64,000 nt of DNA from Candidatus Glassbacteria bacterium (GCA_019456185.1 VRUH01000004.1:11131-75130), one strand, 5' to 3'; positions 3,649 to 25,686 are shown, counted from the first letter of the stretch. Notes: generated from the sequence alone by a model not told the origin. Numbers and translations: made by a program.

Positions 3649-3876
3649 GAGAGCCTCCCGTAAAAGCACCGGTTATTGCTCTTTTCCAGTCGATGAAAAG
3701 AACCAAAAATCTCCGCTGCGCCGGACTCGCTGGACCATTTGGACAATGCCGGCCGACTTGTAAGCGCGGTTAAACAGGCGCTGCCGATCGTGCTCGCCCC
3801 GTCGCATAACGCCGCGCCGGACCTCGCGAAGTACGCCCGGGAATGCAGGTCATTTGAGCCGAAACGGATGTGCCTC

Positions 3877-4698
3877 TTACGACCTCAAGCCGACCTCGTC
3901 CATCAGCCGGGCGGTCTCGGTGTAAGCCTTGCGCACCCACTCGACAATTGCCTCCGGCTGGGGGCAGTACTCTAGCTCGATACTCAGCGCCCCGTCGATA
4001 TCCATCTCCTTGAGCACCTTCATGAACGGCCGGAAATCGATCACGCCGTCGCCGGGGGGAAAGTCGCCGTGGACCTTGCCGTCGCAGTCGGAGAAATGAA
4101 CGTGGTGCGCCTTGCCGTCGAGCAGGCGCAGCTTCTCCGGCTGGTCGCCGGCCAGGGCCACGTGGCTCACGTCGATATTGGCGAAGACGGCCGGATTGGC
4201 GACATCGTCGAGAAAGCGGGCCATGTTCTCCACGTTGTTGACGATCGAGAGTTTGAACGGTTCGAGTTCCAGCACGATCTCCAGGCCGTTCTCCCCGGCG
4301 TAATCACCAATTTGTTTGCAGCCTTCCACGGCCCAGTCCCACTGGGCCTGCGGGGGGATAACTTCCTGCTGCCAGAGGTACTCGCCCAGCACGAGCAGGA
4401 CATTGCGCGCGCCGATATCGCGGGCGAAATCGACAAACTTTTTGGTCCGCCGGACGTGGAACGCCCTGACGGGGTCGGCGAAATCGGCGATTCCCAGCGA
4501 GCAGACCGGGACCGAAATAATCGGCAGGCCGTTGTCTGCGCACACGCGGATAATGGTATCCTTTTGCTCTTTACTGATATCCCAGGCTTCGGTATGGATA
4601 TCCACCGTGTCGAAGCCGATCTCGGCGATATGGCGGATTCCCTCGCTGAACTCGATCCCAACCTGGTCGAAAGCGCTGTTGATCAGTCCCAGTTTCAT
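3877..4698 (-). CDS. Sugar phosphate isomerase/epimerase (xylose-isomerase-like TIM barrel)
   Basis: [10 protein letters not shown]...GFDTVDIH...[12 protein letters not shown] is the typical AP-endonuclease-2/xylose-isomerase-like family. SD AGGGGA lies 6 nt before ATG 4698. Stop-start coupled to the upstream gene. Confidence 0.8.
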
Positions 4699-5801
4699 GC
4701 TTGTTCCCCTTTCAGCCATTTGTCTGGTGCGACGGCGACATGGTTCACCGCCGACTCGTAAGCCGCCTCCACAACGGCCATCGTGCCCAGGTTGCTTTCA
4801 CCGCCCAGGTTCGGTTCCGCGCCCGTTTCCAGGGCGACCAGCAACTCGGCCATCGGCCCGGCGAACGCGTCAGGGAACCAGACCTCCTCCCAGCGGGGGC
4901 TGTGCCACTCGCCGTTGTCGTCAACCGTCGTGTAGTCGATCGTGCTCGGCGTACGCGCCGGGTATTTGGGCCACCCGATAGTCCCTTTGGCCAGCCCTTT
5001 GGTGCCCTCGATACGCCAGTGGATTCGGATATCGTCACCCGCCCCCTCGCGTGCCGGACCTGTCCAGACATCATCCCAGGAGGTGGCCCGCAGGCCGGTG
5101 TTATCGTATTCCAGGATGTAGAGGCAGATACCGTCCGTGTGCTCGAACTTGGTACGCGGGTCGGGGCGCGTGCTGGCGAACACGCGGTCCGGGTTGCCGA
5201 ACCAGAAGCGGAACGTATCGAGGTGATGGATCGACATGATCCGCAGGGTGCACCAGCCCTGACGTTCCTGCCACGGCATCCAGTGGGGGATAGCGCGCAT
5301 GTCGATCGTGGCCAGGACAGGTTCTCCCAGCGCCCCATGATCCAGCAGACTTTTAGCCGCGCGGATACTCTGGTCGTAGCGCATGTTCTGGTTCACCGCC
5401 AGGGTGATTCCGGCCTCGCGGCAGAGCCTGACAATCTCGGCGGCCTCGGCGTAATCCGCTCCCAGCGGTTTCTGGGCCAGGATCCCTCGGACATGGTCGG
5501 CGTGCCGGACCGTTTTACGCACCATCTCCAGCTGGATATCCGGCGGCACGCCGATATCGACCACCTCGATTTCCTTATCGGCCAGCAGCGCGTTGGCCGT
5601 GTCGTAGACTCTGGGGATCTTGTGACGGTCGGCGGCTTTGCGGGCGCTATCGCCCCTGGAGGCGATCGCCACCGGATTGAACCCGGCGTCGCGGTAGGCG
5701 ACCAGGTGGCAGTCGGCGACGATAAAGCCCGCGCCGATACACCCGATCGGCACGTCGCGGCGAGCGGGCATCACCGGCTTGTAGTCGAGTTGAACACTCA
5801 C
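4695..5801 (-). CDS. Gfo/Idh/MocA family oxidoreductase (cytoplasmic)
   Basis: Rossmann N-terminus [17 protein letters not shown] and Gfo/Idh/MocA C-terminal domain. The exact start is ambiguous: GTG 5801 follows AGGAGG by 4 nt, ATG 5771 is an alternative, and the track start is GTG 5816 overlapping the upstream stop. Confidence 0.75.
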
Positions 5802-5812
5802 GTAACCTCCTG

Positions 5813-7666
5813 TCACTTGACAATGATATCGAGCAGAGCGTTGCGCACACGGTCGTAGTCGTCGCCCCGCTGGCTCCAGGGCACGGGGTCCTTCATCTCG
5901 ACTTCATCCAGCCCGCGCGGGACAATCTCCTTGACCATCGCCAGCACCTTGTCCCTGCCGACTTTGTGCTGGGCCAGCCACATCAGCTCGAAATCCTGCT
6001 GGCCGCGGCGCATGTTCTTGAGCCGGATCGAGGGCAGGATCCGGGTCAGGCCGCGGTCCTCTTCGGGGTAAAACGGCATGCGTCCGGGGTAGAACACGAT
6101 CCCGTCGCCGTTGCCGAAATTCATCCCCCAGCTGATAAAGGTCAGCGGCTCGGTGAATACCCGCTGATGCAGCCGTCCCTTGGGTCCCTGCGAGTTGTGC
6201 TGCCAGTGGTTGCCGTGCCAGAGGAACCAGGTGTCGACTCCGTAGAGATACTTGACCCAGGCGTTGACCCGCAGGTCAACAGCTTCGGCTTCCAGGATCA
6301 CCGAGCCGTAGCGCGGGCGGGAGCCGTTGTAGAACCAGTGGTTCTTGCCCTGCTGTTTAAGTTTCGGCAGGGCTTCCAGGTCCACACCATGGCCGCCGGC
6401 CCAGATATCTATCGCCTCATCGAGTTCGGGCGTGTACTGGCGCGTGGTAAACACGGGCAGGCGCTTGCCGGGTCCGGGGTTGGAATGGACCCAGTCGGCA
6501 TGCTCCTTGATCCAGGGGAACTGCACCTTGCCCGGCTCGTCGATCATGTACCAGAAATAGGTGACATCCGGCGCGTTTTTCTCGAACCAACTCACCCACT
6601 TGTCGCTTTCGGCCCGTGTGTTCTCCATGCTGTTCATCACCCTGTCGGTGATCGCACCGTACATCCCGACCGAGAACAGTTTTTCGCCCTCGCCCTCGCC
6701 GGGGCCGTGGTAACCGTTGGCGGGAGTAAACGCACTGCCGTCGAGCCAGCCCTTGTACGAATCCATATCCGCCTGGTCGAACGGGTTGCGGTGGGCGTCG
6801 CTGCCGCCGACCAGGTCGGCCCGGTGACGGTGGGAGATGAACTTGAGCATCTTCTCGGCTTCTTCGTCGCTCAGCTCCGGGAGATAGGTCTTGATCGTGC
6901 CCACGCCGGCATAGAGCCAGATATTCGAGTGGTTCTCGTCGGGAAGGCGGGCCGGCAGCAGTTCGACACTCAGCGGGATGCGGCGTACTTCCGCGCCGTT
7001 TTCGCTGACCCGTACCGTGCTGGTATAGACTCCCGCCGGCCAGCGGCGGTCGCGGGGCAGATAGAGGTCCACCCAGAAGCCCTGGTTCTGGGCCGCCTGG
7101 CGGGGATTAATCTCCAGCGTGTTCTGCCGGCGGTTGACTTCCTGACGGGTAGGCTGGATATCCAGCGGAAACCCGCCGCGTCCTGTGCGGGCGTCGGTCG
7201 GGATCAGCGCGTCCGGAATCCAGCCGGTCATCTTCTCCGGTGCGCTGGCCTCCGATCCATAGAACCATTGCGGTTTGGTGGGGCGTCGCACGCGAAGGTA
7301 GTGCTGGCTGAACAGCTCGACAGTCCCGCCCGGACCATAAAGCATTCCACCCGAGCTCATCGCCACGCCCGCGCTCTGATGTACCGGCGGGTCGACAGCG
7401 ATCTCCACGCCCTTGGCGCCGAGGCTGTCGGCAACGACAATCACCTGGAAGGCCAGCACCTCGTTATAGAGGCCCCGCAGGCTGATCCGCCGGCCGTTCC
7501 AGATACTATTTTTGGCTTTGGAGGGATGGTCTTCCTCGTAGCGGAACACTTTCTCGCCATCGCCGAGCGCCCAGGCGTCGATTACCGCCGCCTGCGAGAT
7601 TGCGCCCGAAAGGAGAAGAGACAACAGTACGACAAAGCTCGTTTTCACCAGACTTCCGTTGGTCAC
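5813..7666 (-). CDS. Secreted hypothetical protein, glycoside-hydrolase-like (DUF4091-like impression)
   Basis: GTG start with GGAGGTG SD and signal peptide. 617 aa, Trp/Tyr-rich. Loose resemblance to the 49306-50916 product. Function not established. Confidence 0.55.
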
Positions 7667-7702
7667 TAGCGCACCTCCATCTGTAAAAGTGAGAACAGAG
7701 AA

Positions 7703-9778
7703 CTAGTTCAAATCCACGTAGGCGCCATCGGGCAGCAGGTACTCGATCGGCCAGGTTTCCTGCATGCGCTCGACAATCCCGGCCCAGTCGACCAGCTTGC
7801 CGTCGGGAGAATTGACCAGCCCGAGCCCGTCGATTGACCCGGCGGCGGCCGCGGCGAGAGTGTGGGCGTATTCGCGTCCGCTAATATCGAGTGCGGGCAG
7901 CCCGAGTTTTTCACTGGCGAATTTACTCACGATTTCCACATCCTCCACCATCTGCAGGAAATACGGCCGCCCGGTGAGCAGGGTATTATAGACGTAGTTG
8001 GCCATCACACCGGAAAGCTGGCTGTAATACTGCTCCTTCAGCGCTACCGCCGCCAGCCGGGGATCATCGATACTGGCGACAGCATAGCGCATCATGTTCT
8101 CGCCCTGGCCGCGGAAATCGAAACTGATGACATCGTAGCCCTGCTCCAGCAGTTGTTCCACCTGGTTGAAATTGTCCTCACCCAGTTTGCGACGGTGGCC
8201 GAGCCAGAGGATCGCTCTGCTGCCGGCGGACCCGGCGTTGGATTTGACATGCAGCACCGGGATACTCAACAGTCCGCTGTGGTGCAAAACGTACCTGTCG
8301 ATTGTGTAGCCGTTATGTTCAGCCGAGCCGGCTGCCTCCCAGCCGATTTCCTGCAGCGACTTGCCGTAGCGCCAGGGGACTACTGTCCAGCGCGCGATAC
8401 CGGGATAGTTTCTGCCATGGTAGATGTCCCTGATCCCGATACTGCGGGAGTCTTTCCGTTTGTGATAATAATCGCGGACGAGCTCGAGGAAATGCTTGCC
8501 GTCGGGATATTCCACCCGGACCTGGCCGGATTTGGTGGCGTTGAGCTCCTCGACATCCAGCAGTTTGAACGGTTCGAAGCCGTGGCGCTCGGGCAGACCG
8601 TTCTGACGGTCGAGGAAGCCGAAAGCGAACAACTGGTTATGGTCGCTGAAGCTGTGCGGATGGTAGCCCTCGCTGATCGCGACCTTGTCCGCATGCCCGA
8701 ACCGCCGATAAGCGGCCTCGACCTCGCGCCAGGTCTTGCGCGCGCCCTCGATCGGGAAGAAATCCTCGACGGCCACCGACAGCACAAGCGGCCGCGGGTA
8801 AGTCAGCAGGCAAAGGCCGGGATGGCCGACACCCGAGGAAACTATCCGGTGGACATCCTGCTCGGGATCGCTGTCGGGATCGCGGAAGATGCGGTTGGCC
8901 ATTCTCATCGGCAGGCTGCTGATATAGCACGACGGCAGGCCGGCGAAAATCCGCGGCTCCAGGGCCATCGCCAGCGCGCTTTGCACGCCGCCGCCGCTGG
9001 TCCCGGTGATCGCAATCCGCTCGGGATCGACTTCGGGGCGGGTGGCGAGGTAATCGAACGCCCGGATGCAGTCCCAGGCCTCGTGGCGCGCCAGGCTGGA
9101 ACCGGCCAGGTAGGCGACGTTGCCGAAGATGCCGTGTTCCCCGCAGACACGGTTGTAGCGGCTGTCGTTTTTCGTTTTATCCCAGTACTGGCTGCGCTCG
9201 CCCTGGCCCACCGGGTCGAGGCAGATAACCAGATAGCCCCGCTGAACCAGGCGGGCTGATATTTCCTGATAGTTACGGAAAGCCTTCGCAACCGGCGAGT
9301 GCCCGCAGGTTACAATGACTGCGGGACGTTTACCCTGAAACCCGGCCGGGACATACACCGCCGCGGTCACATGGAAACCGGGCAGGCTTTCAAACACCAG
9401 CTTTTCTATCCTGTAACCATCCATCTCGATAGTGCCCGTGATACGCGGCCTTAGCGGCGTTTTCTCCTCCGGCAGACCGCCGATAATCTCCAGCAGGCGG
9501 CCGCGCAGATCGCGCTGGTATTCGAGAAACTCGGTCTCGGTTCGGACAGCGGCCAGTTCGGCCTGACGGCGTTCATCCTGACGCCAGGCCATTTCCACCT
9601 GGTAGCGCAGGAACGGTGTAACCTGCATACCAGAGTCGGGCGGGGGACTGATGGCGGTGAAAATGTCCTGACCGGCGGCTGACACCGCCAGCGGTAAACT
9701 GAATGATATCAGCAGCGTAAGTAAACATATAATGCATGATCGGCGAACCGTAGCAATAAACAGGGTGAGAATTTTCAC
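7703..9778 (-). CDS. Secreted two-domain alpha/beta hydrolase (acetyl-xylan-esterase / dienelactone-hydrolase-like)
   Basis: GTG start with GAGAGGA SD and signal peptide. N-domain: VYVPAGFQGKRPAVIVTCGHS...ITGTSGGG (GxSxG). Second hydrolase-like domain: ISFDFRGQGE. Paralog of 53727-55808. Confidence 0.7.
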   Translation of the reverse strand: MKILTLFIATVRRSCIICLLTLLISFSLPLAVSAAGQDIFTAISPPPDSGMQVTPFLRYQVEMAWRQDERRQAELAAVRTETEFLEYQRDLRGRLLEIIGGLPEEKTPLRPRITGTIEMDGYRIEKLVFESLPGFHVTAAVYVPAGFQGKRPAVIVTCGHSPVAKAFRNYQEISARLVQRGYLVICLDPVGQGERSQYWDKTKNDSRYNRVCGEHGIFGNVAYLAGSSLARHEAWDCIRAFDYLATRPEVDPERIAITGTSGGGVQSALAMALEPRIFAGLPSCYISSLPMRMANRIFRDPDSDPEQDVHRIVSSGVGHPGLCLLTYPRPLVLSVAVEDFFPIEGARKTWREVEAAYRRFGHADKVAISEGYHPHSFSDHNQLFAFGFLDRQNGLPERHGFEPFKLLDVEELNATKSGQVRVEYPDGKHFLELVRDYYHKRKDSRSIGIRDIYHGRNYPGIARWTVVPWRYGKSLQEIGWEAAGSAEHNGYTIDRYVLHHSGLLSIPVLHVKSNAGSAGSRAILWLGHRRKLGEDNFNQVEQLLEQGYDVISFDFRGQGENMMRYAVASIDDPRLAAVALKEQYYSQLSGVMANYVYNTLLTGRPYFLQMVEDVEIVSKFASEKLGLPALDISGREYAHTLAAAAAGSIDGLGLVNSPDGKLVDWAGIVERMQETWPIEYLLPDGAYVDLN

Positions 9779-9955
9779 CGGTATCCTCTCTGCAAAGTTT
9801 GAGTGCGAACAGCGATTAATACCAGCTAAGATTCACGGTTAATTGAATTGATTACGGTCGGGAAGTATTGTGCGCAAGTATATAGTAAACAAATCCGCTG
9901 GTTTTTTGAAGTATCTGGTTGTCGGCACTTCAAATTCAGGACCGGGCATTTAATT

Positions 9956-9990
9956 AAAAGCCCGGCCCGGCATTATGCCGGGCCGGGCTT
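9956..9990 (-). terminator. Intrinsic terminator closing the TBDR-CTD-PorV operon
   Basis: 13-bp GC-rich inverted repeat GCCCGGCCCGGCA/TGCCGGGCCGGGC, followed on the minus strand by TTTTAATT. Lies 36 nt after the PorV-like stop. Confidence 0.6.
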
Positions 9991-10025
9991 CATCTTCACA
10001 TGAGTTCAGATCCGGAACACTGGTG

Positions 10026-11237
10026 TTAGAACCCGAAGCTCACGGTGAAGAAGTTATCGGCGGTCAGGCGGCCTTTGTTGCGATAGGCATAGTTGAACGT
10101 GATCGCCTTGCCACCGATATCACGCCTGAGGCCACCGCCGAAACTCAAGCCGCGCCAGGTGGGGTCATCACCCAGGTACTCGTAGCCGAAGTCGTCCATG
10201 CTGTCCGTGTACTCGTCGGTCTGGATCAGCCAGCCCCCACGAAGCGCCGCGGACATGAACGGGGTGAAGTTGAAGTTGATTTCCGTGCCGGTGGCATAGC
10301 TGAGCGGCGTGGTGCTGTTTCTCCACAGCTCAGTGGAAACCAGCCAGTTGGTGTTTTCGGAAGTGAGCAGGTTGTACGACAGCGCCAGCTTGACCACCGA
10401 AGGCAGACGGTAGGTGTGAGTCTGGCGGTACGCCCAGCGGTTCTCCCTGCGGGGCAGGGCGAGGGGGCTCGAGCTGTAGTCGGTATAACCTGTCGGGATA
10501 TTACCACCCATGCTCTCGGGACCGACCTCGTAAAGCAGGTTCGGACCCTTCATGGTGATGTTGGTTCCGAGGTTCTGGATCGCGAAAGCGAAACGGATCT
10601 CGCGGTCGTTGAGCTCGGTGTGGTAGATCGCACCCGCATCGATTGCGAACGCGCTGCCGCCGATGTTGTTGAACATGTCCTGGTGGACATACTTGAGGTT
10701 CATACCGGCGATGAAGCGGTCGCTGAACGTGTAGGCGAACGACGCACCCGCCTGGAAATCGTAGGCGTTAAATGTACGCCCGATACCCTGCGGGGAACTG
10801 AACGTCGTTATTTCCATCTCGGGAATGTCGAGATACCCGAAGAACGCGCCCAGCACCAGATTGCCGTCGGCAACAGGGACCGCCGCCGCGGCGTAGCTGT
10901 AGGTCAGGTCCATGGTGTAATCGACAACCGTCAGCATCACTTCCTTCTGCTGCAGGAATCCCAGTCCGGCGGGGTTCCACCAGATCGAACTGATGCCGTC
11001 GGTGACTGCCGAGTAGGCGCTTCCCATCCCGATGCCCCTGGCTCCCACTGGAATCTCGAGGAACTCAGCGGCTCTTACGCCGACAAAGGAAGCAGCATCC
11101 GGACGCCCCTGTGAGAGATACTTATCCAGACCGGTGTACTCCTGTCGCAGGATACCCTGTGCCATCAGCGGCACGGCGACGAACGACACGAGTACGCCGA
11201 GGATAATCAAGGCGCGTGTGGCCGTTTTGGTTAACAT
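10026..11237 (-). CDS. porV: PorV/LptO-like outer-membrane beta-barrel (type IX secretion shuttle/channel family)
   Basis: ATG 11237 is preceded by GGAGG (6-nt spacer). Signal peptide, then IPVGARGIGMGSAYSAVTDGISSIWWNPAGLG, the N-terminal signature of PorV/PorQ-type barrels. C-terminal aromatic-rich barrel ending in F. Confidence 0.6.
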   Translation of the reverse strand: MLTKTATRALIILGVLVSFVAVPLMAQGILRQEYTGLDKYLSQGRPDAASFVGVRAAEFLEIPVGARGIGMGSAYSAVTDGISSIWWNPAGLGFLQQKEVMLTVVDYTMDLTYSYAAAAVPVADGNLVLGAFFGYLDIPEMEITTFSSPQGIGRTFNAYDFQAGASFAYTFSDRFIAGMNLKYVHQDMFNNIGGSAFAIDAGAIYHTELNDREIRFAFAIQNLGTNITMKGPNLLYEVGPESMGGNIPTGYTDYSSSPLALPRRENRWAYRQTHTYRLPSVVKLALSYNLLTSENTNWLVSTELWRNSTTPLSYATGTEINFNFTPFMSAALRGGWLIQTDEYTDSMDDFGYEYLGDDPTWRGLSFGGGLRRDIGGKAITFNYAYRNKGRLTADNFFTVSFGF

Positions 11238-11311
11238 AAACAACCTCCATTTGGTCTCAAGAGAGAAATTCTTATCTGTGTAAGTCGTCATCTTTCATCA
11301 TCCTTTGCGAT

Positions 11312-14300
11312 TTAGTTGATGACGTAGAACTTACCAGTGTGAGTTTCTCCCCTCTCGTCCGTCACGTGGAAGAAGTACAAGCCGCTGGCCACAGTCTGGC
11401 CGAAACGGTTCCGCAGGTTCCAGGCTTCTGTCCCGCCGTGGTTGTCCCAACCCGTGAACTCACGCGGGTCGCCAGCGATACTCAGACGGTCAAAGTCATC
11501 GTAGTTACCCCAGCCGTGGCGGTTGGCGCCGATATGGTTGAGCACGTTGACCAGGTGGCCGCCCAGTGAATAAATCCGAATGGTGCAGCGCGCGGGCAGG
11601 TTGACAAACTCGATCCGCCGCTGGTCGGGTGACAGATCGAGCGCGGAGGAAGCCATGTACGGATTCGGCACCACCATCACCTTGCTCAGGTCGGCGTCGT
11701 TCGGATCAAAAGTCATCGGCTTAATGGTGAACTTCCATTTGTCACCGGGCATCAGCACGTCGGCGCCCTGGATGAATGTGTTGTCATCCCACGAGCCCAA
11801 CGCGCTGCGCAGCACCATCACAGCGCTGCCCGGCATCGTAATCGGAGCGCCGGACAGGTGGATAATGTGGCCGGCGACCCACAGGGCGCAGTCCTCGGTG
11901 TTGCCCGCCGGCAGTGATTCCACCAGCAAGGTCGAACGGTCCGACTGCGGAGCATAAGACCTCGGGCCCCAGCCCACGTTGGTTTCGCTCTTCAGCACGG
12001 ACGGGTCCACTCCAACAGGAACGAAACCCCAGCCCACGTCGTCGATATACGGGCTGAACGGAATGCTGACGCCATGGGTGCGGTCGGTTACGCTGACAGT
12101 TACGTTGCCACCCGAGCTGCTCCAGCTGATCTCGTAGGCGGCGTTCCGAATGTAGGCCTGATAGTAACCATTCTCGGAATAATGGGAAGCCCCGCTGGCG
12201 GCCAGGCTTTTGTTGCCCAGAGCAACGGTGGCGCCGGTGTAGCCGCCCGGATCGATCTGAACCTGTAAACGCCGGCCTTCGTTTAATTGCCGGCGGCCGG
12301 TGTATGTCAAGGCCGACACAGCCCAGGACACGCCATCCGCACTCATGTTCCCGGAATAAGCTAAGGTAAAAAGGTGCGAGCCTCGATTCCTGGTACGAAC
12401 GTCGACACGAAACGGATCGGTCACCGCGTTACCGCTGGCATCGGCAAACACCACGGAGCGTCTGCCGTTCTGAAAACCCATGGTCTCCATTTTGTCGGTA
12501 GCCTGGAGATAGAACACCTCTTCCGAGGTGATCCGCTCACTATTCACCGCATCCCATGACACATTGGTCAGGAATCTCGGGATAAAGGCCGGATCCTCTG
12601 TCAGCAGGGTTCCGTCACCGGCCAGGGCGACAGTCCCCCCTGCGGTCGGCGTGGCACTGTATCCGGAGGGCGGGACGTATTCATAACCGACCAGTTCCGC
12701 CGCTTTGAAGCTACTGGCATCGCTGCGGGGCTGGACCGTGTACAACTGCGCGCCGGGTCTGTTCCACAACTTACCGCTGGCGGGATCGGGCAGACTGAAG
12801 TAGGCGTCCTCACCCGGATCGTAGTTGTAATCGTAAGGAACGAGCGCATACCAGATGCGCATGCCGTTGTTCATCCGGAACAGCGGGTTGTCACTGCCAC
12901 GCGTGTCGATAAAATGGAACGCCAGGTCGCCGCCGCCGATGCTGCCTTCCCAGATCAGCTCGGAATGCGAGTCGCTGGGACCGACAAACGAGCGATACAG
13001 GCGGTAACCCTCGAAATCGTACTCCCGGTACAGCCCACTGGGATCGAGCGAGGGGTTATCCTGCAGGAAGCCATAATACGCATCGGGCGTATTGATGTTG
13101 ACGTCGCTCCAAGTGATGGTCACCTGTTTCGCGCCGGGGATAATCGTCAGTGGCGGCGGAGCCGGTGTTTCAGGCAGTATGAAGCCGCCGGCAGAGACGA
13201 TCTCGGCCACGTCATTGTAGGCCAGCACCGTGCTCAACTGATCCTGCACATCGGGATTGTCCAGATTGGGAATATCCGATGGCGGGAAAGTGAACGGCGG
13301 GTTCTTGGGCTGCACCCACGAATACACCGCGTCCAGGCTGAAGCTGTCGCGCGGTGCGAAGTCATGGTACTCGCCCCAGAAGTTGTAGGAGTTGTAGGCG
13401 TTGCGCGTACCCCACCACCACTGGTCGTAACGCGGCTCTTCCGGCAGAGGCACGCCGGGCCAGCCGTACACCGGACCGCCGGTCCAGGGATTTACGTAGC
13501 CGGGATAGAACGGAGCGGTGGGATCGTAGCGGCCGTTGCCGTAACGGTAGGCCCTACCCGTCGGATAACCGCCCTCGAGCACTTCCTCGGGCTGCATCAG
13601 GCCGTACTCTGTCGACCAGCCATGGGCGGAGCTGTTGGAGAACCGGATTTCCTCGCCCTTCCAAACGGGTTTACGCAGCATCATCATCGACACCATCGCC
13701 GGATGCCCGGTGAAGCTGCCCTCGATGCCGTCCCGGTCCGCTACGACAATGATTTCGCGCGGGAAGTAATATGCCCACGCTTCATCGCGGCCGCCGATCA
13801 GGAAGCCGTTGCCGTAGTTATAATTCAACTGCATACCGATCCAGACCTGGCCGTTAGGCGTGGAGGCGATCTGTGCCGTTATGTCCGGATTGCCGTTCCA
13901 CTTGTTGTACTCGCTCATGTTACGGAAGAACACATGGGCGTAAACCATGTTGTTGCTTTCCGCGAAGTTGAGGAAATGGAAGCGCCATTCGATCGAACCG
14001 CCCATAGCTTGGCTTTGGTTGAAACAGTCGCCATTGAAGGTAACGATAGTTTCAGCGCCGTGGAAGATCGGGGCGCCGCCGGTGGAGCGGCCTTCACGGA
14101 ACTCGGCGGGCCAGTCGGCGATGTCGCCGGGATCGGAGGTGGTATAGACCCGGCTCTGGGGTAGCCGTCTCGCGGCGTCTTCCATATCCTCACCGGCTGC
14201 TTGCAGAGATGTCAGCAGATCGAGAGCTTCCAGCGAGCAGAGCATGCCCGGGAAGCGTCCGGCCCTGGAAAGGTTGGCCAACGTGTCGTTAGCCACACCG

Positions 14301-14557
14301 TCGCCGGTGCCGTCTCGAGCGACACATAATCCCCAGTTCCAGCGACCTGGCTTGTAGATGTTACCCGAACCGCGCGGGAATTGGGTAGGCGTTCCACCGC
14401 GCATCGGTCCGCCGTAGCTCGTAGACACCGTTAAGCCGACGTTGTTGCCCTGGGCCTGGGTACTCTGCTTCCATTCTGCATTCGCAGTGGAAACGAATAG
14501 AACCAGCAGGGTCACAACCGCCAGCTTGATCGGAATAATGAGATATTTATGAAGCAT
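11312..14557 (-). CDS. Large (1081 aa) secreted protein with C-terminal T9SS sorting domain (CTD); function unknown, FN3-like segments
   Basis: AGGAGA SD and signal peptide MLHKYLIIPIKLAVVTLLVLFVSTANA. The C-terminus ...VMVVPNPYMASS...CTIRIYSLGGHLVNVL...WNLRNRFGQTVASGLYFFHVTDERGETHTGKFYVIN matches the Por_Secre_tail / FlgD-Ig-like CTD pattern. Positioned between the TBDR and PorV genes. Confidence 0.65.
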   Translation of the reverse strand: MLHKYLIIPIKLAVVTLLVLFVSTANAEWKQSTQAQGNNVGLTVSTSYGGPMRGGTPTQFPRGSGNIYKPGRWNWGLCVARDGTGDGVANDTLANLSRAGRFPGMLCSLEALDLLTSLQAAGEDMEDAARRLPQSRVYTTSDPGDIADWPAEFREGRSTGGAPIFHGAETIVTFNGDCFNQSQAMGGSIEWRFHFLNFAESNNMVYAHVFFRNMSEYNKWNGNPDITAQIASTPNGQVWIGMQLNYNYGNGFLIGGRDEAWAYYFPREIIVVADRDGIEGSFTGHPAMVSMMMLRKPVWKGEEIRFSNSSAHGWSTEYGLMQPEEVLEGGYPTGRAYRYGNGRYDPTAPFYPGYVNPWTGGPVYGWPGVPLPEEPRYDQWWWGTRNAYNSYNFWGEYHDFAPRDSFSLDAVYSWVQPKNPPFTFPPSDIPNLDNPDVQDQLSTVLAYNDVAEIVSAGGFILPETPAPPPLTIIPGAKQVTITWSDVNINTPDAYYGFLQDNPSLDPSGLYREYDFEGYRLYRSFVGPSDSHSELIWEGSIGGGDLAFHFIDTRGSDNPLFRMNNGMRIWYALVPYDYNYDPGEDAYFSLPDPASGKLWNRPGAQLYTVQPRSDASSFKAAELVGYEYVPPSGYSATPTAGGTVALAGDGTLLTEDPAFIPRFLTNVSWDAVNSERITSEEVFYLQATDKMETMGFQNGRRSVVFADASGNAVTDPFRVDVRTRNRGSHLFTLAYSGNMSADGVSWAVSALTYTGRRQLNEGRRLQVQIDPGGYTGATVALGNKSLAASGASHYSENGYYQAYIRNAAYEISWSSSGGNVTVSVTDRTHGVSIPFSPYIDDVGWGFVPVGVDPSVLKSETNVGWGPRSYAPQSDRSTLLVESLPAGNTEDCALWVAGHIIHLSGAPITMPGSAVMVLRSALGSWDDNTFIQGADVLMPGDKWKFTIKPMTFDPNDADLSKVMVVPNPYMASSALDLSPDQRRIEFVNLPARCTIRIYSLGGHLVNVLNHIGANRHGWGNYDDFDRLSIAGDPREFTGWDNHGGTEAWNLRNRFGQTVASGLYFFHVTDERGETHTGKFYVIN

Positions 14558-14616
14558 AGGTTATCTCCTGTGAATTTGCTATGGAATAACCGGCAAAATG
14601 CCAATCAGCCACGGAG

Positions 14617-17600
14617 TTAGAAAGTAAACTCGGCGCCGAAACGGATCTGCCTGGCCAAGCCATAGGCGCCCTTGTCCATCGTGGACATCATCACCGAATG
14701 GGCGATGTTGCCCTTGGCCTGCTCTTCAAGCGAAAGTACGCCGTCCTGGTTGAAATCTGCATTGAACCAGGTTTTGGTTTCCCGGCTCGCGTTGTCGTCC
14801 CACTCCATCACCACTCCGCCGCCGGCGCGCCTGTAATAGGACTCGAAGTGCAGGCCCGACGGGTATGCTGTCGGATACTTCTTGCTGAACGTGTTAAAGA
14901 TTTCGCTGAAGAGGTTGATCCGATAGGCTCTGCCCAGGCGGATCTGCTTGGTGAAACGCAGGTCCAGGTTATAGTCCCAGCGCCCGCGGAAGTAGTTGAC
15001 GCCACCGATCGGACGCCCGTTGCGGCGGGTCAGCCACGAGACGTTCTCGTCCGCGGCCATCCAGTAGGTGGAACCGGAGTTGACGATCCTGTCGTAAGCA
15101 GGCGCCCCGCTTTGCAGGGTGAACAGCGCAAAGATGCGGATGTCCCTCAGGACCGTATTGTAGATCGTCCCGGACTTGAAGTCTTCCGGGAAGAGGTAGT
15201 TGAGGGTGGCGGTCACCTTGTGGGTCACGTCACCGTTGATCGGCCTCAGCTCGTCGGGCGGAACGAAGACCGCGCCGGTTGAGGGATCGAGGAAGACGTC
15301 AAACTCACCGGTGGTGGCGTAATCACTACCGGTGGTGCGGGAGAACTGCATGGTGTACATCAGGTTGTAAGCGAAATTGTTGCTGAAGCGCTTACGCATG
15401 GTAAGGTCCATGCCCTTGATGTTACCACTGTCCCTGTTGGTGAAACCCGTGGTCCAGTCGCGAATCGGGCGTTCCTCGTGCCACTGGTAGTAGTCGCGGA
15501 AGAATTCCTTGCGAGCCACGTTGCCGATAACGTCGCGATAGTAACCCACCACGTCCATCACCATGTCATCGCTGATCAGATAGCTCACGCCGCCCTCGAA
15601 CGAGTCCGTGCGGCTGTATTCCAGACCGCCGGGGTTGCTGCCGCTGAAGATGTAGCTCATGCTGGGCAGCTGGGAGAACACGCCGTAGCTGAAACGCATC
15701 TGACTCTTGTCGGTAACCGGGAAGCCGACATCGAAACGAGGCGACCACTCGTCGATAACGTTGGCGAAATATCTCTCGCCCCAGTCGTCGCCGCTGCGGA
15801 ATCCCCAGTTGTCTACCGGATCGAACCTGTCAAAGCGCAGGCCGTAATTGAAGATGAAGTCGCCGAGATCGGTACGGTTCTGAAGGTAAAGAGCCAGTAT
15901 CGTCGGCTCGTAGTTGAACTCGTTATCTAAATCTCTGCGGAACCTCATGTTATGCAGCTCGTACTTCTGGTTCTCGAAGTCCGAGAACTGCAGGCCCAGC
16001 TTGGCGCGGTTGTAACGGTTAATCTGGAAATCGATATCGACCTTGTAGTTGTTCTGCCACTCGCGCTGGTAGAAGTAGCTGAGCCAGTAGAGGTCGTTAC
16101 CGGTAATCAGCCGGTAAGGATACTCCAGGTCCCAGTTACGGTGCCATGGACCGTCGCCGTCGGGATAATAGATCTTGCCTAAGTCGGAGCCCTGCAGCGG
16201 CATGTTCATCTCGGGGAAGGTCTCGATCTCGAAGGGGATGTCGTGCATTGACCAGCCCATGAACGTGGTGTTCTCGCTGCGGACGTAGCCATCGCGCGGG
16301 CTCCCGCTCGAAATATCCTGGGTCCTGAACCTGGTGTAACGGAATATCAGCGATGCGCTCCGGTCTGCGCTGCGGTAGAAGTCCCAGTCGCCGCCCAGCA
16401 GCAGGTTGCTTGTGCGGGTACGCCGGGCGTAGCCCTGCGGGACCACCAGCATCGTATCCGACTCGTTCTCCCAGGCCCTGGCCGGCAGGGTGGATTGAGT
16501 AATAACGCCATCGGTAAAGTAATTACCCTGGCTGCGGGGGATGCTGTTCTGGTTGCGGCTGTAGTTGATCGAGCCCAGCAGCTTCATACCCTGGAGCGGG
16601 TAGTAAGTAATCTTGCTGCTGGCCAGGCTCCTGTCGCCCCAGTTTTCCGGGACACGCACGGGGTTGCCCGGATTGAACAGCGCTGCGCTGTTGCCGGTCT
16701 TGCCGGCGTAGAAGTCGCGCCCTGCCTGGAGGTCTTCCAGGCTGAAAGCTGGGGTCTGAATGCCGAAAACCGGGTCGTTACGGACCGCGGCGTTCAGCCG
16801 CGCCACGAAATCTTCGTTGATGCCGCGGAAGCCCTCGTCGGCGTGAGTCGGCTGACGGTCGGCCATTCCCTGAATTTCACCCGAACCGTGGATGTACAGG
16901 TTGGGGATGAAGGAAAGCGGTCCGCCGATCGAGACGGTCATCTGGTTATAGCCGTAATCGGAGGTGCGGGGGTTGGTTTCATCGGTGGTGTACCTGATGT
17001 TACCGTGCCAGTCCGCGCCACCTTCCTTGGTTACGATATTGATCACACCGGACTGGGCGTTGCCGTACTCGGCCTGGAACCCGCCGGTGATGATGTCCAC
17101 CTGCTCGACCGCAGCCGCGGAGAACTCCAGAGGAGACGCATCCTCGGCGCGGGAACCGAGCTCCTGCTCCCACACCCAGCCGAGACCGCTTCTGAACGGG
17201 TCGGCGGTGTAGTTGCGCACGGTCATGCCGTCGATGATCATCACTTCTTCACCCAGGCGGCCGCCGCGGATACGCAGGCCGCGGCCAAGGGCGTCGGGAC
17301 CGCCGGTCTGCACGCCGGCCTCGAGAATCATCATGTCCTCGAGCGTGGTGGCGGGTATTTCGGCGATTTTCTCCGCGGTCATCCTCTGTTTACTGACCGT
17401 GTTATCACGCGGCATCAGCACATCGGATTCACCCTCGATAGTGATTCCCTCGAGCTGGACCACGGTGGAACTCATGTTTGAATTAACAGTCGTGGTCTGG
17501 CCGGCGAGCAGCAGTTGATCACCAATCGTCACCTTCTGATAACCGGTGTATGTGAAGGTGATATCGCGCCGTCCAGGCGGTACGTTCAGGATAAAAAAGT

Positions 17601-17802
17601 AACCGTCCGCATTGGTTACGTTTCCCAGCCTGGTGCCTTCGATCACGACCTGCGCACCCTGCAGGGGTCCGCCCGTATCGGCGTCCCGGACTGTGCCCTC
17701 AACCTTGGAGGTATTGAGCTGAGCCATTGCAGGCAAGGCCCAGATCAATGCAGAGAGCAGCAGTATGCCGGACCTTCCGAAAAGACGTTTGTTAATCGAC
17801 AT
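14617..17802 (-). CDS. TonB-dependent outer-membrane receptor, SusC/RagA-like (CarbopepD_reg domain + plug + barrel)
   Basis: ATG 17802 with AAGGAGG SD. Signal peptide MSINKRLFGRSGILLLSALIWALPAMAQ. N-terminal carboxypeptidase-regulatory-like beta-sandwich (GTVRDADTGGPLQGAQVVIEG...), then plug region (DIITGGFQAEYGNAQSGVINIVTKEG). C-terminal ...AEFTF. Confidence 0.75.
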   Translation of the reverse strand: MSINKRLFGRSGILLLSALIWALPAMAQLNTSKVEGTVRDADTGGPLQGAQVVIEGTRLGNVTNADGYFFILNVPPGRRDITFTYTGYQKVTIGDQLLLAGQTTTVNSNMSSTVVQLEGITIEGESDVLMPRDNTVSKQRMTAEKIAEIPATTLEDMMILEAGVQTGGPDALGRGLRIRGGRLGEEVMIIDGMTVRNYTADPFRSGLGWVWEQELGSRAEDASPLEFSAAAVEQVDIITGGFQAEYGNAQSGVINIVTKEGGADWHGNIRYTTDETNPRTSDYGYNQMTVSIGGPLSFIPNLYIHGSGEIQGMADRQPTHADEGFRGINEDFVARLNAAVRNDPVFGIQTPAFSLEDLQAGRDFYAGKTGNSAALFNPGNPVRVPENWGDRSLASSKITYYPLQGMKLLGSINYSRNQNSIPRSQGNYFTDGVITQSTLPARAWENESDTMLVVPQGYARRTRTSNLLLGGDWDFYRSADRSASLIFRYTRFRTQDISSGSPRDGYVRSENTTFMGWSMHDIPFEIETFPEMNMPLQGSDLGKIYYPDGDGPWHRNWDLEYPYRLITGNDLYWLSYFYQREWQNNYKVDIDFQINRYNRAKLGLQFSDFENQKYELHNMRFRRDLDNEFNYEPTILALYLQNRTDLGDFIFNYGLRFDRFDPVDNWGFRSGDDWGERYFANVIDEWSPRFDVGFPVTDKSQMRFSYGVFSQLPSMSYIFSGSNPGGLEYSRTDSFEGGVSYLISDDMVMDVVGYYRDVIGNVARKEFFRDYYQWHEERPIRDWTTGFTNRDSGNIKGMDLTMRKRFSNNFAYNLMYTMQFSRTTGSDYATTGEFDVFLDPSTGAVFVPPDELRPINGDVTHKVTATLNYLFPEDFKSGTIYNTVLRDIRIFALFTLQSGAPAYDRIVNSGSTYWMAADENVSWLTRRNGRPIGGVNYFRGRWDYNLDLRFTKQIRLGRAYRINLFSEIFNTFSKKYPTAYPSGLHFESYYRRAGGGVVMEWDDNASRETKTWFNADFNQDGVLSLEEQAKGNIAHSVMMSTMDKGAYGLARQIRFGAEFTF

Positions 17803-18061
17803 AGATCCTCCTTCAGGATCCTTCTGGAACAATTTGCGAATGTAAATGCTTCCTGTTGCCTTCTTTGCGCCTGACCGAAATTCCTGAAAACCGCTCATCT
17901 CTTTCAAGCCACTCATCAGTGCAAGTGCTTCATTCGCCCTCCTTGGAATTGAGTTGTGGTTTCGCTGGAACATTCGGTACGAAAGATGAGTTCCAGCATT
18001 TTGTCGAAATTTAAACCGAGCAGAGCAATTACTTTCCGTTGCCCCTCTTCGGAAATAAAAG

Positions 18062-18090
18062 TTGACGAGATTGCGAATAGTTTATATATT
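18062..18090 (+). promoter_or_regulatory. Near-consensus sigma70-type promoter (TTGACG-N17-TATATT) oriented away from the TBDR operon
   Basis: TTGACG at 18062-18067, 17-nt spacer, TATATT at 18085-18090. No protein-coding gene starts downstream on the plus strand. Confidence 0.45.
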
Positions 18091-18096
18091 AACGTA

Positions 18097-18175
18097 GCAA
18101 TCCCTTGGGATTGCGCTTGTGGCCCATGCCGGATGAACCTTGGCGGAACTGACGGCATGGGCCCTTTTATATTAT
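18097..18175 (+). ncRNA. Candidate small RNA (about 78 nt; a second repeat copy could extend it to about 170 nt)
   Basis: Predicted TSS about 7 nt after the -10. A 5' hairpin GCAATC-ccttgg-GATTGC, then an 11-bp perfect stem GGCCCATGCCG/CGGCATGGGCC followed by CTTTTATATT. A second copy of the terminator-like hairpin plus TTTCTTATTCGTT sits at 18211-18265. Confidence 0.3.
18100..18164. repeat. 65-bp direct repeat copy 1 (hairpin-containing)
   Basis: The 40-nt core CCATGCCGGATGAACCTTGGCGGAACTGACGGCATGGGC is identical to copy 2; the flanks carry 4 mismatches. Confidence 0.9.
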
Positions 18176-18189
18176 TCCGTTCAAACAAA

Positions 18190-18253
18190 AATCCCCTGGA
18201 TTGCGCTCGTGGTCCATGCCGGATGAACCTTGGCGGAACTGACGGCATGGGCA
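18190..18253. repeat. 65-bp direct repeat copy 2 (period 90 bp)
   Basis: See copy 1. The stem holds 10 bp including one G-U wobble. Confidence 0.9.
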
Positions 18254-18376
18254 TTTCTTATTCGTTGTCAGAAATTTGCTCTGAGCAAAAACTTGTTTTT
18301 CATCAATGAATTATGATCTTTTTGTCCTTTTTTATAATCCAGATTACCAGCTTTATATGGTGAATCCCGGATGAAA

Positions 18377-19696
18377 TCAGGCTGGAACTCCTTCCAGCCT
18401 GGATGTTTTGCTCGTTGATTTTCTCGTTCTGGCTACCGGCTGGGATCCGTCGTCGTGATCGCCGAGCATGTGCTGCAGGACGAGGGCGCGCGCGCCGCTG
18501 AATGTAGGATTCTGCAAGGAGCACGGTACAATCAGGTCCGGCAGGTGCTCCATCGGGTACGGCGCCCTGCTGCGAAGCTGGTCCAGCAGCTCGGGATAAA
18601 TCAGTTTCCACGCCTTTACGAGGTGGCCGCACAGAATGATCCGCTCCGGGTCGAGTCCGTTGTTGATATTGGCCAGGCCCGCTCCCAGCCATTTCGCGGT
18701 TTCCCGCAAGGCCTTGCGCGCATCGGAATCTCCCTCGACAGCCATATCGATCAGTCTGATCGCCTGGCTGCCGAAATCGTCTTCCCTCGGCTGACCGGAA
18801 AGCTCACAATAACGGTCGACAATACCCTCGAACGACGCCTTGTCCTCCCAGGTAGTGCCTTTGGAAGGTGTTTCGTAATCCCCGTCGATCTCCACAATCC
18901 CCGAGTAGAACCTACCGTCCATGAACCGGGCTCCGTTATAGAGCTTCCCGTGGATTACCGTACCGATGCCCACACCCTCGCAGACGAGAACGTAAACGAA
19001 ATTACTCAGCCCCCTCGCCTCATCGGCAAACCAAAACTCGGCTACCGCACCTGCCTTGGCGTTATTTTCAACAAAGACAGGGCACTCGAAATGGCGCTCG
19101 ACCGGTTTGCGGCAGGAAACGTTTTTCCAGCCCAGACGGTTGTTCCAGAAGATCATGCCGGTCTCCGAATTAAGCACCGCAGCGACAATCACGCTTACGC
19201 CGGCCAGGGGCTGCGTAAATTCATCGACCATCTCCGCAAGTCTGGCGGCGCAGAGATCGAAGAATTTGTCGGCGTCGTTGGGGAAAGTTTCGATTTGTTG
19301 TTGAGAAAGGACTTCGCCTGAAAGGTCGCAGACCGACAGGGTAGCATGGCGAATGGTTGTATCAATCGATCCGTAAATCCGGTAACTCGGGCTGACCCTC
19401 AGGTTGACCGGCTTGCGGCCCAGCGCGTTGGCGTCGTCCTGGCTCGCCTCGTAGATCGCACCCTCGCCGATAAGCTCGCTGGTGATCTTGGAAACAGTGC
19501 TCTGGTTCAGCCCTGTGCTCCTCGACAGTCTGACCCGGGAGATCGGACCGTGTGTGATGATTGTATTCAATACCGCCGAGCGGTTGAGTGCCCGGATTTT
19601 CTTGTGGGCATGCGGCATTAATTTTTTTACCCGTATAGTTCCTGAGATACGGTATGGAGGGAATGACATCTTGTCGTTCCAAATACCAAACGACAA
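18377..19696 (-). CDS. ROK-family transcriptional regulator (NagC/XylR/Mlc-like) with N-terminal HTH
   Basis: HTH LNRSAVLNTIITHGPISRVRLSRSTGLNQSTVSKI, then the ROK sugar-kinase-like fold. Start uncertain: TTG 19696, ATG 19669 or ATG 19618. Confidence 0.7.
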   Translation of the reverse strand: MSFGIWNDKMSFPPYRISGTIRVKKLMPHAHKKIRALNRSAVLNTIITHGPISRVRLSRSTGLNQSTVSKITSELIGEGAIYEASQDDANALGRKPVNLRVSPSYRIYGSIDTTIRHATLSVCDLSGEVLSQQQIETFPNDADKFFDLCAARLAEMVDEFTQPLAGVSVIVAAVLNSETGMIFWNNRLGWKNVSCRKPVERHFECPVFVENNAKAGAVAEFWFADEARGLSNFVYVLVCEGVGIGTVIHGKLYNGARFMDGRFYSGIVEIDGDYETPSKGTTWEDKASFEGIVDRYCELSGQPREDDFGSQAIRLIDMAVEGDSDARKALRETAKWLGAGLANINNGLDPERIILCGHLVKAWKLIYPELLDQLRSRAPYPMEHLPDLIVPCSLQNPTFSGARALVLQHMLGDHDDGSQPVARTRKSTSKTSRLEGVPA

Positions 19697-20103
19697 AACG
19701 CTGTACTCATATCTGTTTAGCCGCTAACTGTTGAGAATCCCGGTCAAGTAATTTACATGGGAAATGAGTGGATAGGTATCTGCAAAAATTTTCTTTCGGA
19801 AAGAATATTTGTATTATATTAGCATATTCCGCAATCGTTGTCAAGAAAGAAGTCCAAAAAAACAGAGCAAAACCGTGAATCGTGTTCGCAACTGTGATCC
19901 CGTTATCTAAAGTACAAGCAAGGGTGTCCGGGATGAAAAAACGCCTGTTGGCACAACACCGGTTTCTGGAAAGAAATCTTTTTTTTCCATCAAACTAAAT
20001 ATTAACACAATCCATCGAAAAAAGATTATCCGGGCAATCTGGTTTCAACTAGATTATTTTCTGGAAACTTGAGAACAGCAGAATAATCCTTGTAGTTTAA
20101 CCC

Positions 20104-25675: not shown

Positions 25676-25686
25676 GAAAGTTCTTG

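Follow-up and report, generated by a model that had tools for sequence, protein, structure and literature searches.

A conserved three-gene cassette of a TonB-dependent transporter, a secreted protein with a type IX-like tail, and a PorV/PorQ-family barrel in Candidatus Glassbacteria

A three-gene cassette with its own start signals and a single terminator

We analyzed a 64,000-nucleotide (nt) stretch of DNA from a metagenome-assembled genome (MAG) of Candidatus Glassbacteria (GCA_019456185.1 VRUH01000004.1:11131-75130), referred to below as the window. It carries a conserved cassette of three genes, which encode a TonB-dependent transporter (G1), a large secreted multidomain protein (G2), and an outer membrane beta-barrel of the PorV/PorQ family (G3), and we propose that the three proteins may together capture and import glycans. 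The open reading frames (ORFs) lie at 14617..17973 (G1), 11312..14557 (G2), and 10026..11291 (G3). They and all of the features within them are on the minus strand.

A preliminary description of this DNA had noted that the three genes are co-directional, that gaps of 59 and 74 nt separate them, that each has its own Shine-Dalgarno (SD) sequence, and that a single terminator follows the last gene. We confirmed all of this on the sequence. The ORF and the gap given for G1 also held, but its 5' limit did not, as 17973 is merely the first ATG of the open frame. The start of G1 is most likely the ATG at 17802, which has the SD sequence GAAGGAGG 5 nt upstream. From this start, G1 (14617..17802) encodes 1,061 amino acids (aa) with the Sec signal peptide MSINKRLF...LPAMA/Q, and the choice is supported by the resulting length, which fits homologues of 1,046 to 1,074 aa. 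G2 starts at 14557 behind the SD sequence CAGGAGA. G3 (10026..11237) starts at the ATG at 11237 behind GGAGG and encodes 403 aa with a signal peptide, making it as long as almost all of its homologues. With these starts, the intergenic gaps are 59 nt (14558-14616) and 74 nt (11238-11311).

An intrinsic terminator with a 16-bp GC-rich stem followed by UUUU lies 3' of G3 on the minus strand (about 9953-9991). The hairpin is 35 nt past the G3 stop codon and has a fold energy of -44.2 kcal/mol (z = -6.4 versus shuffled sequences). This hairpin was missed by a scan for consensus promoters and terminators, whose other matches stayed at chance level (11 observed versus 9.6 expected).

G1 is a complete TonB-dependent transporter

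We found that G1 is a complete, true TonB-dependent transporter. Pfam detected CarboxypepD_reg (E = 2e-15) and Plug (E = 2e-9) domains. Behind the signal peptide, the AlphaFold2 (AF2) model (predicted local distance difference test score, pLDDT, 84.6) contains the CarboxypepD_reg N-terminal extension, a disordered linker, the plug, and 22 barrel strands. The top Foldseek matches were PirA, PhuR, PfeA, FepA, and BtuB, with E values of 1e-27 to 1e-24 (7e-27 for PirA); TbpA and XusA were also among the structural matches.

G1 had been called a SusC-like TonB-dependent receptor. We retain the second half of this name and drop the first, since the SusC/RagA model TIGR04056 gave 52 bits, far below its cutoff of 368.25, and aligned only at its N terminus (positions 2-217 of 981). 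No SusC-type structure was present in the top 50 fold matches, the best of which are classical siderophore and cobalamin transporters. In addition, we found no SusD family in any annotated related locus, and the protein encoded downstream, G2, has neither a SusD Pfam match nor a lipobox. The Oar-like barrel PF25183 did not match G1 at E values up to 0.01; a minority of paralogues and the distant cassettes described below do match it.

A candidate TonB box, STVVQLEGITIEGE (aa 112-125; 17428..17469), with the core VVQLEGITIEG, lies in the linker that leads from the N-terminal extension into the plug. We propose this assignment from position and resemblance. The corresponding family consensus, VELEGITVEGE, is conserved, and linker residues 114-130 have a pLDDT below 50. 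G1 also has a canonical 12-residue EF-hand-like Ca-binding loop, DFNQDGVLSLEE (aa 1016-1027; 14722..14757). In the model, it lies inside a helical insertion of L11, the last extracellular loop, which has 83 aa and joins strands 21 and 22. Across 88 homologues, D1016, N1018, D1020, G1021, and L1023 of the EF-hand-like loop show a conservation of 90% or more, and E1027 never varies. G2 has an invariant acidic motif of its own, DGxGDG..D (aa 82-91). The loop and the motif may be Ca-dependent docking sites.

G3 belongs to the PorV/PorQ family

G3 matched the PorV/PorQ family model NF033709 with 143 bits (cutoff, 90) over profile positions 2-326 of 326. It scored 72.4 bits against the PorQ model NF033711 (cutoff, 220) and 55 bits against the PorV model NF033710 (cutoff, 250). 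Judged by these profiles, G3 is a separate branch of the family that is nearer PorQ. Its only solved relative by sequence is PorV of Flavobacterium johnsoniae (chain 6h3i_F; E = 9e-7). The paralogues are 65 to 88% identical.

We also tried FadL as an assignment for G3 and rejected it: Toluene_X (PF03349) reached 22.4 bits, below its cutoff of 29.7, and did so along a 57-residue stretch only. The weak match (E = 4.9e-5) and faint Toluene_X marks on homologues would fit a channel of the FadL type that takes a hydrophobic or amphipathic substrate and has no connection with the G2 tail. We consider such a role for G3 very improbable, because the PorV/PorQ family scores well above its cutoff, the closest solved relative is PorV, and G3 co-diverges with the G2 tail (see below). 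Both families belong to one fold class, so cross-matches between them are expected. The earlier identification of the third gene as a PorV-like barrel stands.

G2 has a predicted beta-supersandwich and no lipobox

G2 (1,081 aa) has a Sec signal peptide that is predicted to be cleaved after ANA (ANA/E), and it has no lipobox. Pfam assigned no family, that of the C-terminal domain (CTD) of type IX secretion system (T9SS) cargo included, to G2 or to any of 46 homologues, and a sequence search of the PDB with G2 gave no match. The AF2 model of G2 has a pLDDT of 83.5, which exceeds 90 across residues 30-460. These residues (13178..14470) are modeled as a galactose-mutarotase-like beta-supersandwich, referred to below as the N-domain. 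In the best structural matches, this fold is a non-catalytic accessory domain of (alpha/alpha)6 enzymes; G2 is without such a helical domain. The N-domain is the locus-specific module of G2 and its putative glycan-binding part.

The N-domain is followed by a fibronectin type III (FN3)-like domain (aa 461-610; 12728..13177), which has the secondary structure of a beta-sandwich in the model and contains the conserved block PPPLTIIPG..VTITWSD...YDFEGYRLYRS. Further beta-sandwiches are modeled at about residues 620-950. This part of the protein includes a beta-sandwich module, at about aa 641-960 (11678..12637), that is species specific and homogenized among the paralogues within a genome. The preliminary description had considered a T9SS CTD to be the only recognizable module of G2 and had suggested looking for a SusD-like lid in a predicted structure. 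A T9SS-type tail on a partner that is not a lipoprotein was borne out. The rest of the protein is not without content, as the model shows the beta-supersandwich, and what the model gave in place of a SusD lid is a beta-rich protein with a supersandwich of the carbohydrate enzyme type, not a tetratricopeptide repeat (TPR) lipoprotein such as SusD.

At two loci, L070 (JGI 3300083231 contig Ga0675942_0000156, 8001-18433) and L068 (8001-9896), the N-module of G2 is instead joined to a dockerin together with a canonical FlgD_ig tail. Their neighbors include PQQ-propeller/dockerin/FlgD_ig proteins and multi-cohesin proteins. Cohesin-dockerin (cellulosome-like) parts are combined with T9SS-type tails there, in what is apparently a diderm MAG.

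The G2 tail resembles those of PorZ and PorU

The C-terminal domain of G2 (aa 961-1081; 11315..11677) is the most conserved part of the protein. In the model, it is an Ig-like beta-sandwich at the extreme C terminus and is similar to solved CTDs. It matched the C-terminal 90 positions of the PorZ model, with an E value of 4e-6 for the whole protein and 3e-7 for the domain alone. The domain contains a family-specific insertion of about 35 aa (aa 1009-1043; 11429..11533; pLDDT, 58 to 62) with eight invariant residues (R1013, G1015, W1016, D1023, G1036, N1039, H1040, and G1042), and H1008, just before it, is also invariant.

The tail domain alone scored 14.2 bits against PF18962 and 16 bits against TIGR04183. 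When we deleted the insertion in silico, the scores were 18.5 bits for PF18962 (cutoff, 27), over positions 3-73 of 75, and 22.1 bits for TIGR04183 (cutoff, 23). Without the insertion, the domain also aligned end to end with the tails of PorZ (E = 3e-10) and PorU (E = 0.003). Of the two CTD types, type A fits better (TIGR04183, E = 1e-4; PorZ, E = 3e-10) than type B (TIGR04131, E = 0.03). In our judgment, these alignments describe a divergent, type A-like tail of the PorZ/PorU kind that is probably homologous to T9SS CTDs though sub-threshold. The claim that the C terminus of G2 would match T9SS CTD models such as Por_Secre_tail is thus supported by alignment and fold and fails at the curated cutoffs.

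The order of the three genes is invariant among relatives

We scanned one genome per GTDB species and found 60 loci in 11 assemblies, nine of them titled Ca. Glassbacteria or Gemmatimonadales. The other two are labeled "archaeon" and, in the case of a 2.7-kb contig, "Deltaproteobacteria." Among 64 fetched loci, the order and orientation G1>G2>G3 were kept in all 46 that were long enough, with no counterexample, and the remaining 18 end at a contig edge exactly at the expected place of the missing gene. This gene order is far beyond chance, and the triplet that had been predicted to be conserved in relatives is.

The cassette is present in many copies per genome. As lower bounds, we counted 12, 11, 7, 6, 5, 5, 4, 3, 3, and 3 copies in 10 MAGs, the first two being CAYLSM and DATKXY. 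No second cassette was found within the window, and the source MAG has at least two. One G2 paralogue, beside the transporter P0285 at locus L074 (13150-13700), was called with 972 aa because a scaffold gap (a run of N) splits the gene; its true N terminus, with a signal peptide, is upstream.

The preliminary description had set the cassette in a Bacteroidota frame. The host is instead Candidatus Glassbacteria, and G2 shares 100% identity with FVQ81_02595, a protein from a Ca. Glassbacteria MAG. In GTDB, Glassbacteria is a class of Gemmatimonadota (PMC11316326). The assembly titled "archaeon" is DATKXY (SMAG_U14205; L009, L011, L013, and others), and it has 11 Glassbacteria-type cassettes with outer membrane proteins. 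The 2.7-kb contig binned as "Deltaproteobacteria" (L032; QMLQ01000384) carries a G2/G3 fragment. Both labels are probably due to taxonomic mislabeling or misbinning.

With a profile of the G2 family, we retrieved 4,036 proteins at an E value threshold of 1e-3, of which 1,413 also passed at 1e-10. Many of the proteins are 1,000 to 1,350 aa long and have only the FN3-like, pre-tail, and tail regions in common. We inspected three of the distant matches and found each in a related cassette. In L072 and L073, a transporter (946 aa, with PF25183) is followed by a 1,165-aa protein and then by a PorV-like protein (351 to 355 aa). In L071, from a 6.45-Mb genome of 69% GC, the order is transporter, PorV-like protein, NHL protein, and tail-bearing protein. 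The large proteins of the three loci are 26 to 38% identical to G2, and around the tail only. Because the same components occur together with similarity limited to the tail, the three-component logic is older and wider than the G2 family. L073 has a second PorV-like gene (11969-13003, minus strand) beside genes for a 757-aa Por_Secre_tail protein (9001-11274, minus strand) and a Peptidase_M15 protein. A PorV-like barrel plus a tail-bearing protein may form a unit of more general occurrence, whether or not a transporter accompanies it.

The two ends of G2 co-diverge with different partners

We compared segments of the three proteins across 34 complete triplets. Mean paralogue identity was 74% for the G2 tail, 73% for the N-terminal extension and plug of G1, 68% for G3, 63% for the FN3-like domain of G2, 54% for the G1 barrel, 39% for the G2 N-domain, and 38% for G2 residues 611-950. 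In partial Mantel tests, the G2 N-domain was correlated with the G1 barrel when G3 was controlled (r = 0.66, P = 0.0005), and the G2 tail was correlated with G3 when the G1 barrel was controlled (r = 0.32, P = 0.0005). The cross terms were not significant (r = 0.09 for the tail with the barrel and 0.10 for the N-domain with G3). The co-divergence is a double dissociation, in which the N-domain goes with the G1 barrel and the tail goes with G3.

Two further proteins provide a natural experiment. P0097 and P0095 carry the G2 N-module (58% identity) on a canonical FlgD_ig/Por_Secre_tail tail, and neither has an adjacent transporter or PorV-like gene. This arrangement therefore suggests that the special tail and G3 go together.

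One module of G2 evolves in concert within genomes

The module at about aa 641-960 of G2 behaves differently from the rest of the cassette. In 40-aa bins, paralogues within a genome exceeded sequences from different genomes in identity by 0.13 to 0.31 in this module, versus at most 0.06 in the rest of G1, G2, and G3. Orthologous loci in different MAGs are 68 to 84% identical in the N-domain and only 31 to 39% identical in the module. Paralogues within one MAG show the reverse, with 31 to 49% identity in the N-domain and 67 to 88% in the module. Between the G2 of the window and the L074 paralogue beside P0285, the tract has a synonymous divergence (dS) of 0.10 and a ratio of nonsynonymous to synonymous divergence (dN/dS) of 1.14, versus a dS of 1.1 to 1.5 in the rest of the gene; in the tail, dS is 1.1 and dN/dS is 0.15. 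The proportion of synonymous differences (pS) fell below 0.4 in the module in 16 of 58 within-genome pairs, compared with 0 to 1 pairs in other segments. The boundaries of the homogenized tract are sharp, at about aa 600-640 and about aa 960. The same module is present in loci L005-L067.

We concluded that the module undergoes recurrent gene conversion that is confined to it. Between species, it changes fast and is possibly under positive selection. The simplest reading, which we do not hold with confidence, is that the module contacts something shared and species specific, such as a surface glycan, an attachment machinery, or other G2 molecules. Alternatively, the module may be an exposed target under diversifying selection. 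The module is a clean natural example of concerted evolution limited to one domain of a multigene family, and it points to some shared partner.

These data also bear on the idea that the cassette is mainly a surface layer or adhesin array, in which barrel-tethered G2 paralogues assemble via the 641-960 module and the transporter is a mere neighbor. Such an array would agree with the many copies per genome and with a module that is homogenized within a genome and fast between species, with a dN/dS of about 1.1 in one pair. However, no cassette lacks the transporter, whose divergence tracks that of the G2 N-domain, and the loci contain substrate-specific enzymes and regulators. A lattice role for the middle module would, moreover, be compatible with glycan capture and is not an alternative to it. 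We give the surface layer reading little credence and retain capture and import as our proposal.

The surroundings of the cassette resemble a polysaccharide utilization locus

A gene for a ROK-family regulator or kinase (18377..19696, minus strand; Pfam ROK, E = 4e-35) lies directly upstream of the cassette. A ROK gene occupies the same upstream position in 11 related loci; other loci have HisKA_3/GerE, single receiver domains, or sigma-54 two-component systems. The genes downstream of the cassette (540..9778) are co-directional with it. By Pfam, they encode an AXE1/S9-like esterase (7703-9778), a GH123-like protein (5813-7666), a GFO/IDH/MocA oxidoreductase (4695-5816), a xylose-isomerase-like TIM barrel (3877-4719), and two beta-helix proteins (2092-3669 and 540-2123), all on the minus strand. 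The esterase, GH123-like, and GFO genes are syntenic in the orthologous locus L005. Beyond the ROK gene, Pfam identified a Sortilin/BNR-repeat protein (20104-22575, plus strand) and an RGL11-like protein (22715-24787, minus strand). Elsewhere in the window (24812-26718, 31784-32665, 49306-50916, and 53682-58054), we observed genes for an SDR, a Zn-ADH, a PL14-like protein, a second GH123-like and a second AXE1-like protein, a PfkB kinase, and a PL22-type oligogalacturonate lyase.

This gene content suggests that the whole region is a large polysaccharide degradation island, and the annotations hint at pectic or uronate-containing substrates for the locus. Other cassettes adjoin BNR_2 sialidase-like and SSF transporter genes, Hepar_II_III-like and FGE-sulfatase genes, Melibiase/GHL6 genes, or GH43-like genes. 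With a transporter/partner pair, carbohydrate-active enzymes, and a regulator, the locus falls within the operational definition of a polysaccharide utilization locus (PUL) and outside the strict SusC/SusD definition.

G2 might itself be a surface enzyme, namely, a new glycoside hydrolase, lyase, or epimerase, with the transporter and the anchor working as they would for a capture protein. Its N-domain has many invariant acidic, aromatic, His, and Arg residues, the neighboring enzymes have no recognizable secretion tails, and an extracellular depolymerase is otherwise missing. In contrast, no catalytic family was found by sequence in any of the 46 members, and the best structural matches have the supersandwich as an accessory domain beside a helical domain that G2 does not possess. 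We consider an enzymatic G2 unlikely and favor a binding role.

A model for glycan capture and import

We lean toward the view that the cassette is a capture-and-import module for glycan nutrients, that is, a Glassbacteria counterpart of SusC/SusD built from different parts, and we think this somewhat probable. The proposal is based on an invariant triplet that occurs in many copies per MAG and in varied PUL-like contexts. It is also based on the nature of the parts: a complete TonB-dependent G1, a G3 that is nearest PorQ, a G2 tail that is nearest PorZ and PorU, and a carbohydrate enzyme supersandwich without its catalytic (alpha/alpha)6 partner. The double dissociation, the natural experiment of P0097 and P0095, and the three-component distant cassettes point the same way.

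According to this model, G1 would be a TonB-energized importer. G2 would be exported by Sec and then cross the outer membrane by a T9SS-type route, which we infer to be present, signaled by its C-terminal domain. This domain would remain uncleaved and bound to the dedicated PorQ-like G3, as PorZ is on PorQ and PorU is on PorV, so that the tail held by G3 would tether G2, exposed at the cell surface, beside G1. The N-terminal beta-supersandwich would bind the target glycan and, in contact with G1, pass it to the barrel. Neighboring esterases, lyase- and hydrolase-like proteins, and sugar-catabolic enzymes would process the substrate, and a locus-specific regulator, here ROK, would control the operon. 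The many cassettes of a genome would serve different substrates through different N-domains and barrels.

Delivery of G2 by T9SS is suggested indirectly. Canonical CTD proteins (FlgD_ig/Por_Secre_tail) are encoded on contigs with G2 family genes, and T9SS genes have been reported from Gemmatimonadetes (PMC11285876). We found no ORF as large as SprA in the roughly 1 Mb of Glassbacteria DNA that was fetched.

A T9SS-independent surface display can also be imagined, in which G1 works as an Oar-like secretion device that exports G2 outwards and G3 holds or shuttles G2. Oar-dependent secretion of the protease PopC has been documented in Myxococcus (PMC6434023). G1 has an architecture of the Oar type (about 1,060 aa with an N-terminal CarboxypepD_reg domain), the Oar-like barrel PF25183 is found in some paralogues and in the distant cassettes, and G2, which is not a lipoprotein, requires an outer membrane route. 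But the G1 of the window has no PF25183 match. The homology of the G2 tail to T9SS tails and of the barrel to PorV/PorQ indicates a T9SS route, and the G2 N-module also occurs on canonical T9SS tails without a transporter. In addition, the varied context of sugar-catabolic genes and regulators and the diversification of the barrels and N-domains fit the import of different substrates better. Secretion by G1 seems quite improbable to us, and we keep import as its proposed function.

Several observations weigh against the capture model. The modeled supersandwich hints at sugar binding only indirectly. The core T9SS genes (SprA/Sov and PorK/L/M/N) were not found in the 64-kb window. The G2 tail is under every curated T9SS CTD cutoff, which we attribute to the 35-aa insertion. 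Partial Mantel tests are liberal on related sequences, and the segments that co-diverge are neighbors on the DNA (the 3' end of G1 with the 5' end of G2, and the 3' end of G2 with G3), so recombination between paralogues could yield part of the co-divergence pattern. Finally, no recognizable CTD is present on the neighboring enzymes of the window, so the model does not account for extracellular cleavage of the polymer.

Comparison with known systems

SusC/SusD-type loci are the accepted explanation of glycan foraging in Bacteroidota. Like SusC/SusD (RagA/RagB), the cassette encodes a large TonB-dependent transporter with a CarboxypepD_reg-type extension directly upstream of its putative surface partner. 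Many paralogous pairs occur per genome, each with its own carbohydrate-active enzyme-like set and regulator, and partner and barrel co-diversify. In contrast to SusD, the partner here is not a TPR lipoprotein but a beta-rich protein of about 1,080 aa that begins with a Sec signal peptide and ends in a T9SS-type tail. The cassette also has an obligatory third gene for a PorQ/PorV-like barrel, its transporter fails the SusC model, and its host belongs to Glassbacteria.

The second resemblance is to the PorQ-PorZ and PorV-PorU pairs of Porphyromonas gingivalis, in which PorZ and PorU are anchored at the surface by binding PorQ and PorV (PMC12365241). There, as here, a PorV/PorQ-family barrel is paired with a protein that has a PorZ/PorU-like tail, and G3 is nearer PorQ as the G2 tail is nearest PorZ. 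Those pairs are single-copy housekeeping parts of the secretion system, whereas Glassbacteria genomes hold up to 12 or more cassettes, in which the pair shares an operon with a transporter. The body of G2 is unrelated to the beta-propellers of PorZ, and its tail has the 35-aa insertion. We know of no PorQ-PorZ or PorV-PorU pair that is coupled to a transporter gene.

Type B CTD cargo is anchored by cognate PorP-like carriers, as in SprB-SprF (PMC9143113). The cassette shares with this arrangement one cargo and one dedicated, adjacent outer membrane barrel for surface anchorage. It differs in that the barrel is PorV/PorQ and not PorP/SprF, the tail is nearer type A and PorZ, and a transporter is part of the unit. 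Oar of Myxococcus xanthus is similar to G1 in size and in its N-terminal CarboxypepD_reg domain, and PF25183 is found in some paralogues and in the distant cassettes. Unlike Oar, the G1 of the window lacks PF25183, lies in a sugar catabolism context, and has a partner with T9SS-type signals. TbpA/TbpB and XusA/XusB are also TonB-dependent transporters helped by surface-exposed capture proteins. Their partners are lipoproteins, whereas G2 is a non-lipoprotein that would sit on a separate barrel.

The earlier view that the arrangement lies outside the described PUL paradigm agrees with our literature search: we found no description of a transporter/CTD/PorV cassette, and nothing relevant on Glassbacteria transporters, in the searchable full-text literature, which does not cover all journals. 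Every part comes from a known family or fold class. What appear to be undescribed are the combination and its multiplication into up to 12 or more versions per genome.

To our knowledge, other phyla of the Fibrobacteres-Chlorobi-Bacteroidetes (FCB) group have many TonB-dependent transporters and no SusD. For one uncultured class, the cassette suggests a concrete and testable way in which polymers could be captured. We suggest tentatively that Glassbacteria, and some of the lineages with distant cassettes, have a third way of providing a TonB-dependent transporter with a surface partner, one that involves neither a SusD-type nor a Slam-type lipoprotein. This would be a T9SS-type cargo that keeps its PorZ-like tail on its own PorQ-like barrel, giving a three-protein "utilisome" that has been multiplied for different substrates, and the shared stalk module (aa 641-960) would imply docking on a common species-specific structure or on one another. 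If this is true, barrels of the PorV/PorQ family would serve not only as single-copy components of secretion but also as modular surface anchors that have been multiplied. The signature of a transporter, a large tail-bearing protein, and a PorV-like barrel could then be used in annotation pipelines to find nutrient uptake loci in MAGs, which is of relevance to the fields of PULs, T9SS, and FCB group ecology.

A leader element and low-GC stretches

Two tandem copies of an element of about 70 nt (18080..18262, minus strand) lie in the 575-nt leader that separates the ROK gene from G1. Two 38-nt cores match exactly, where chance would give 0, and the consensus folds into two hairpins, GGGCCCATGCCG...CGGCATGGGCC and GCAATCC..GGATTGC. 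At the same position, the orthologous loci L005 (2100-2470) and L001 (about 6380-6480) have three copies and one copy, respectively, and the element is absent from all other fetched loci. Rfam assigned no family to the leader, the sole match (CRISPR-DR26, E = 0.86) being at chance level. Possible identities of the element are a cis-regulatory RNA, a small RNA array, or a protein-binding site or operator that only this group of orthologues has.

Three stretches of the window, 18001-20000, 28001-30000, and 40001-42000, are low in GC (about 51%, compared with about 60% for the window). A DUF4145 gene (29187-29828) adjoins the stretch at 28 to 30 kb, and a DNA methylase gene lies at 62963-63958. 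The low-GC stretches may be mobile or defense-related islands.

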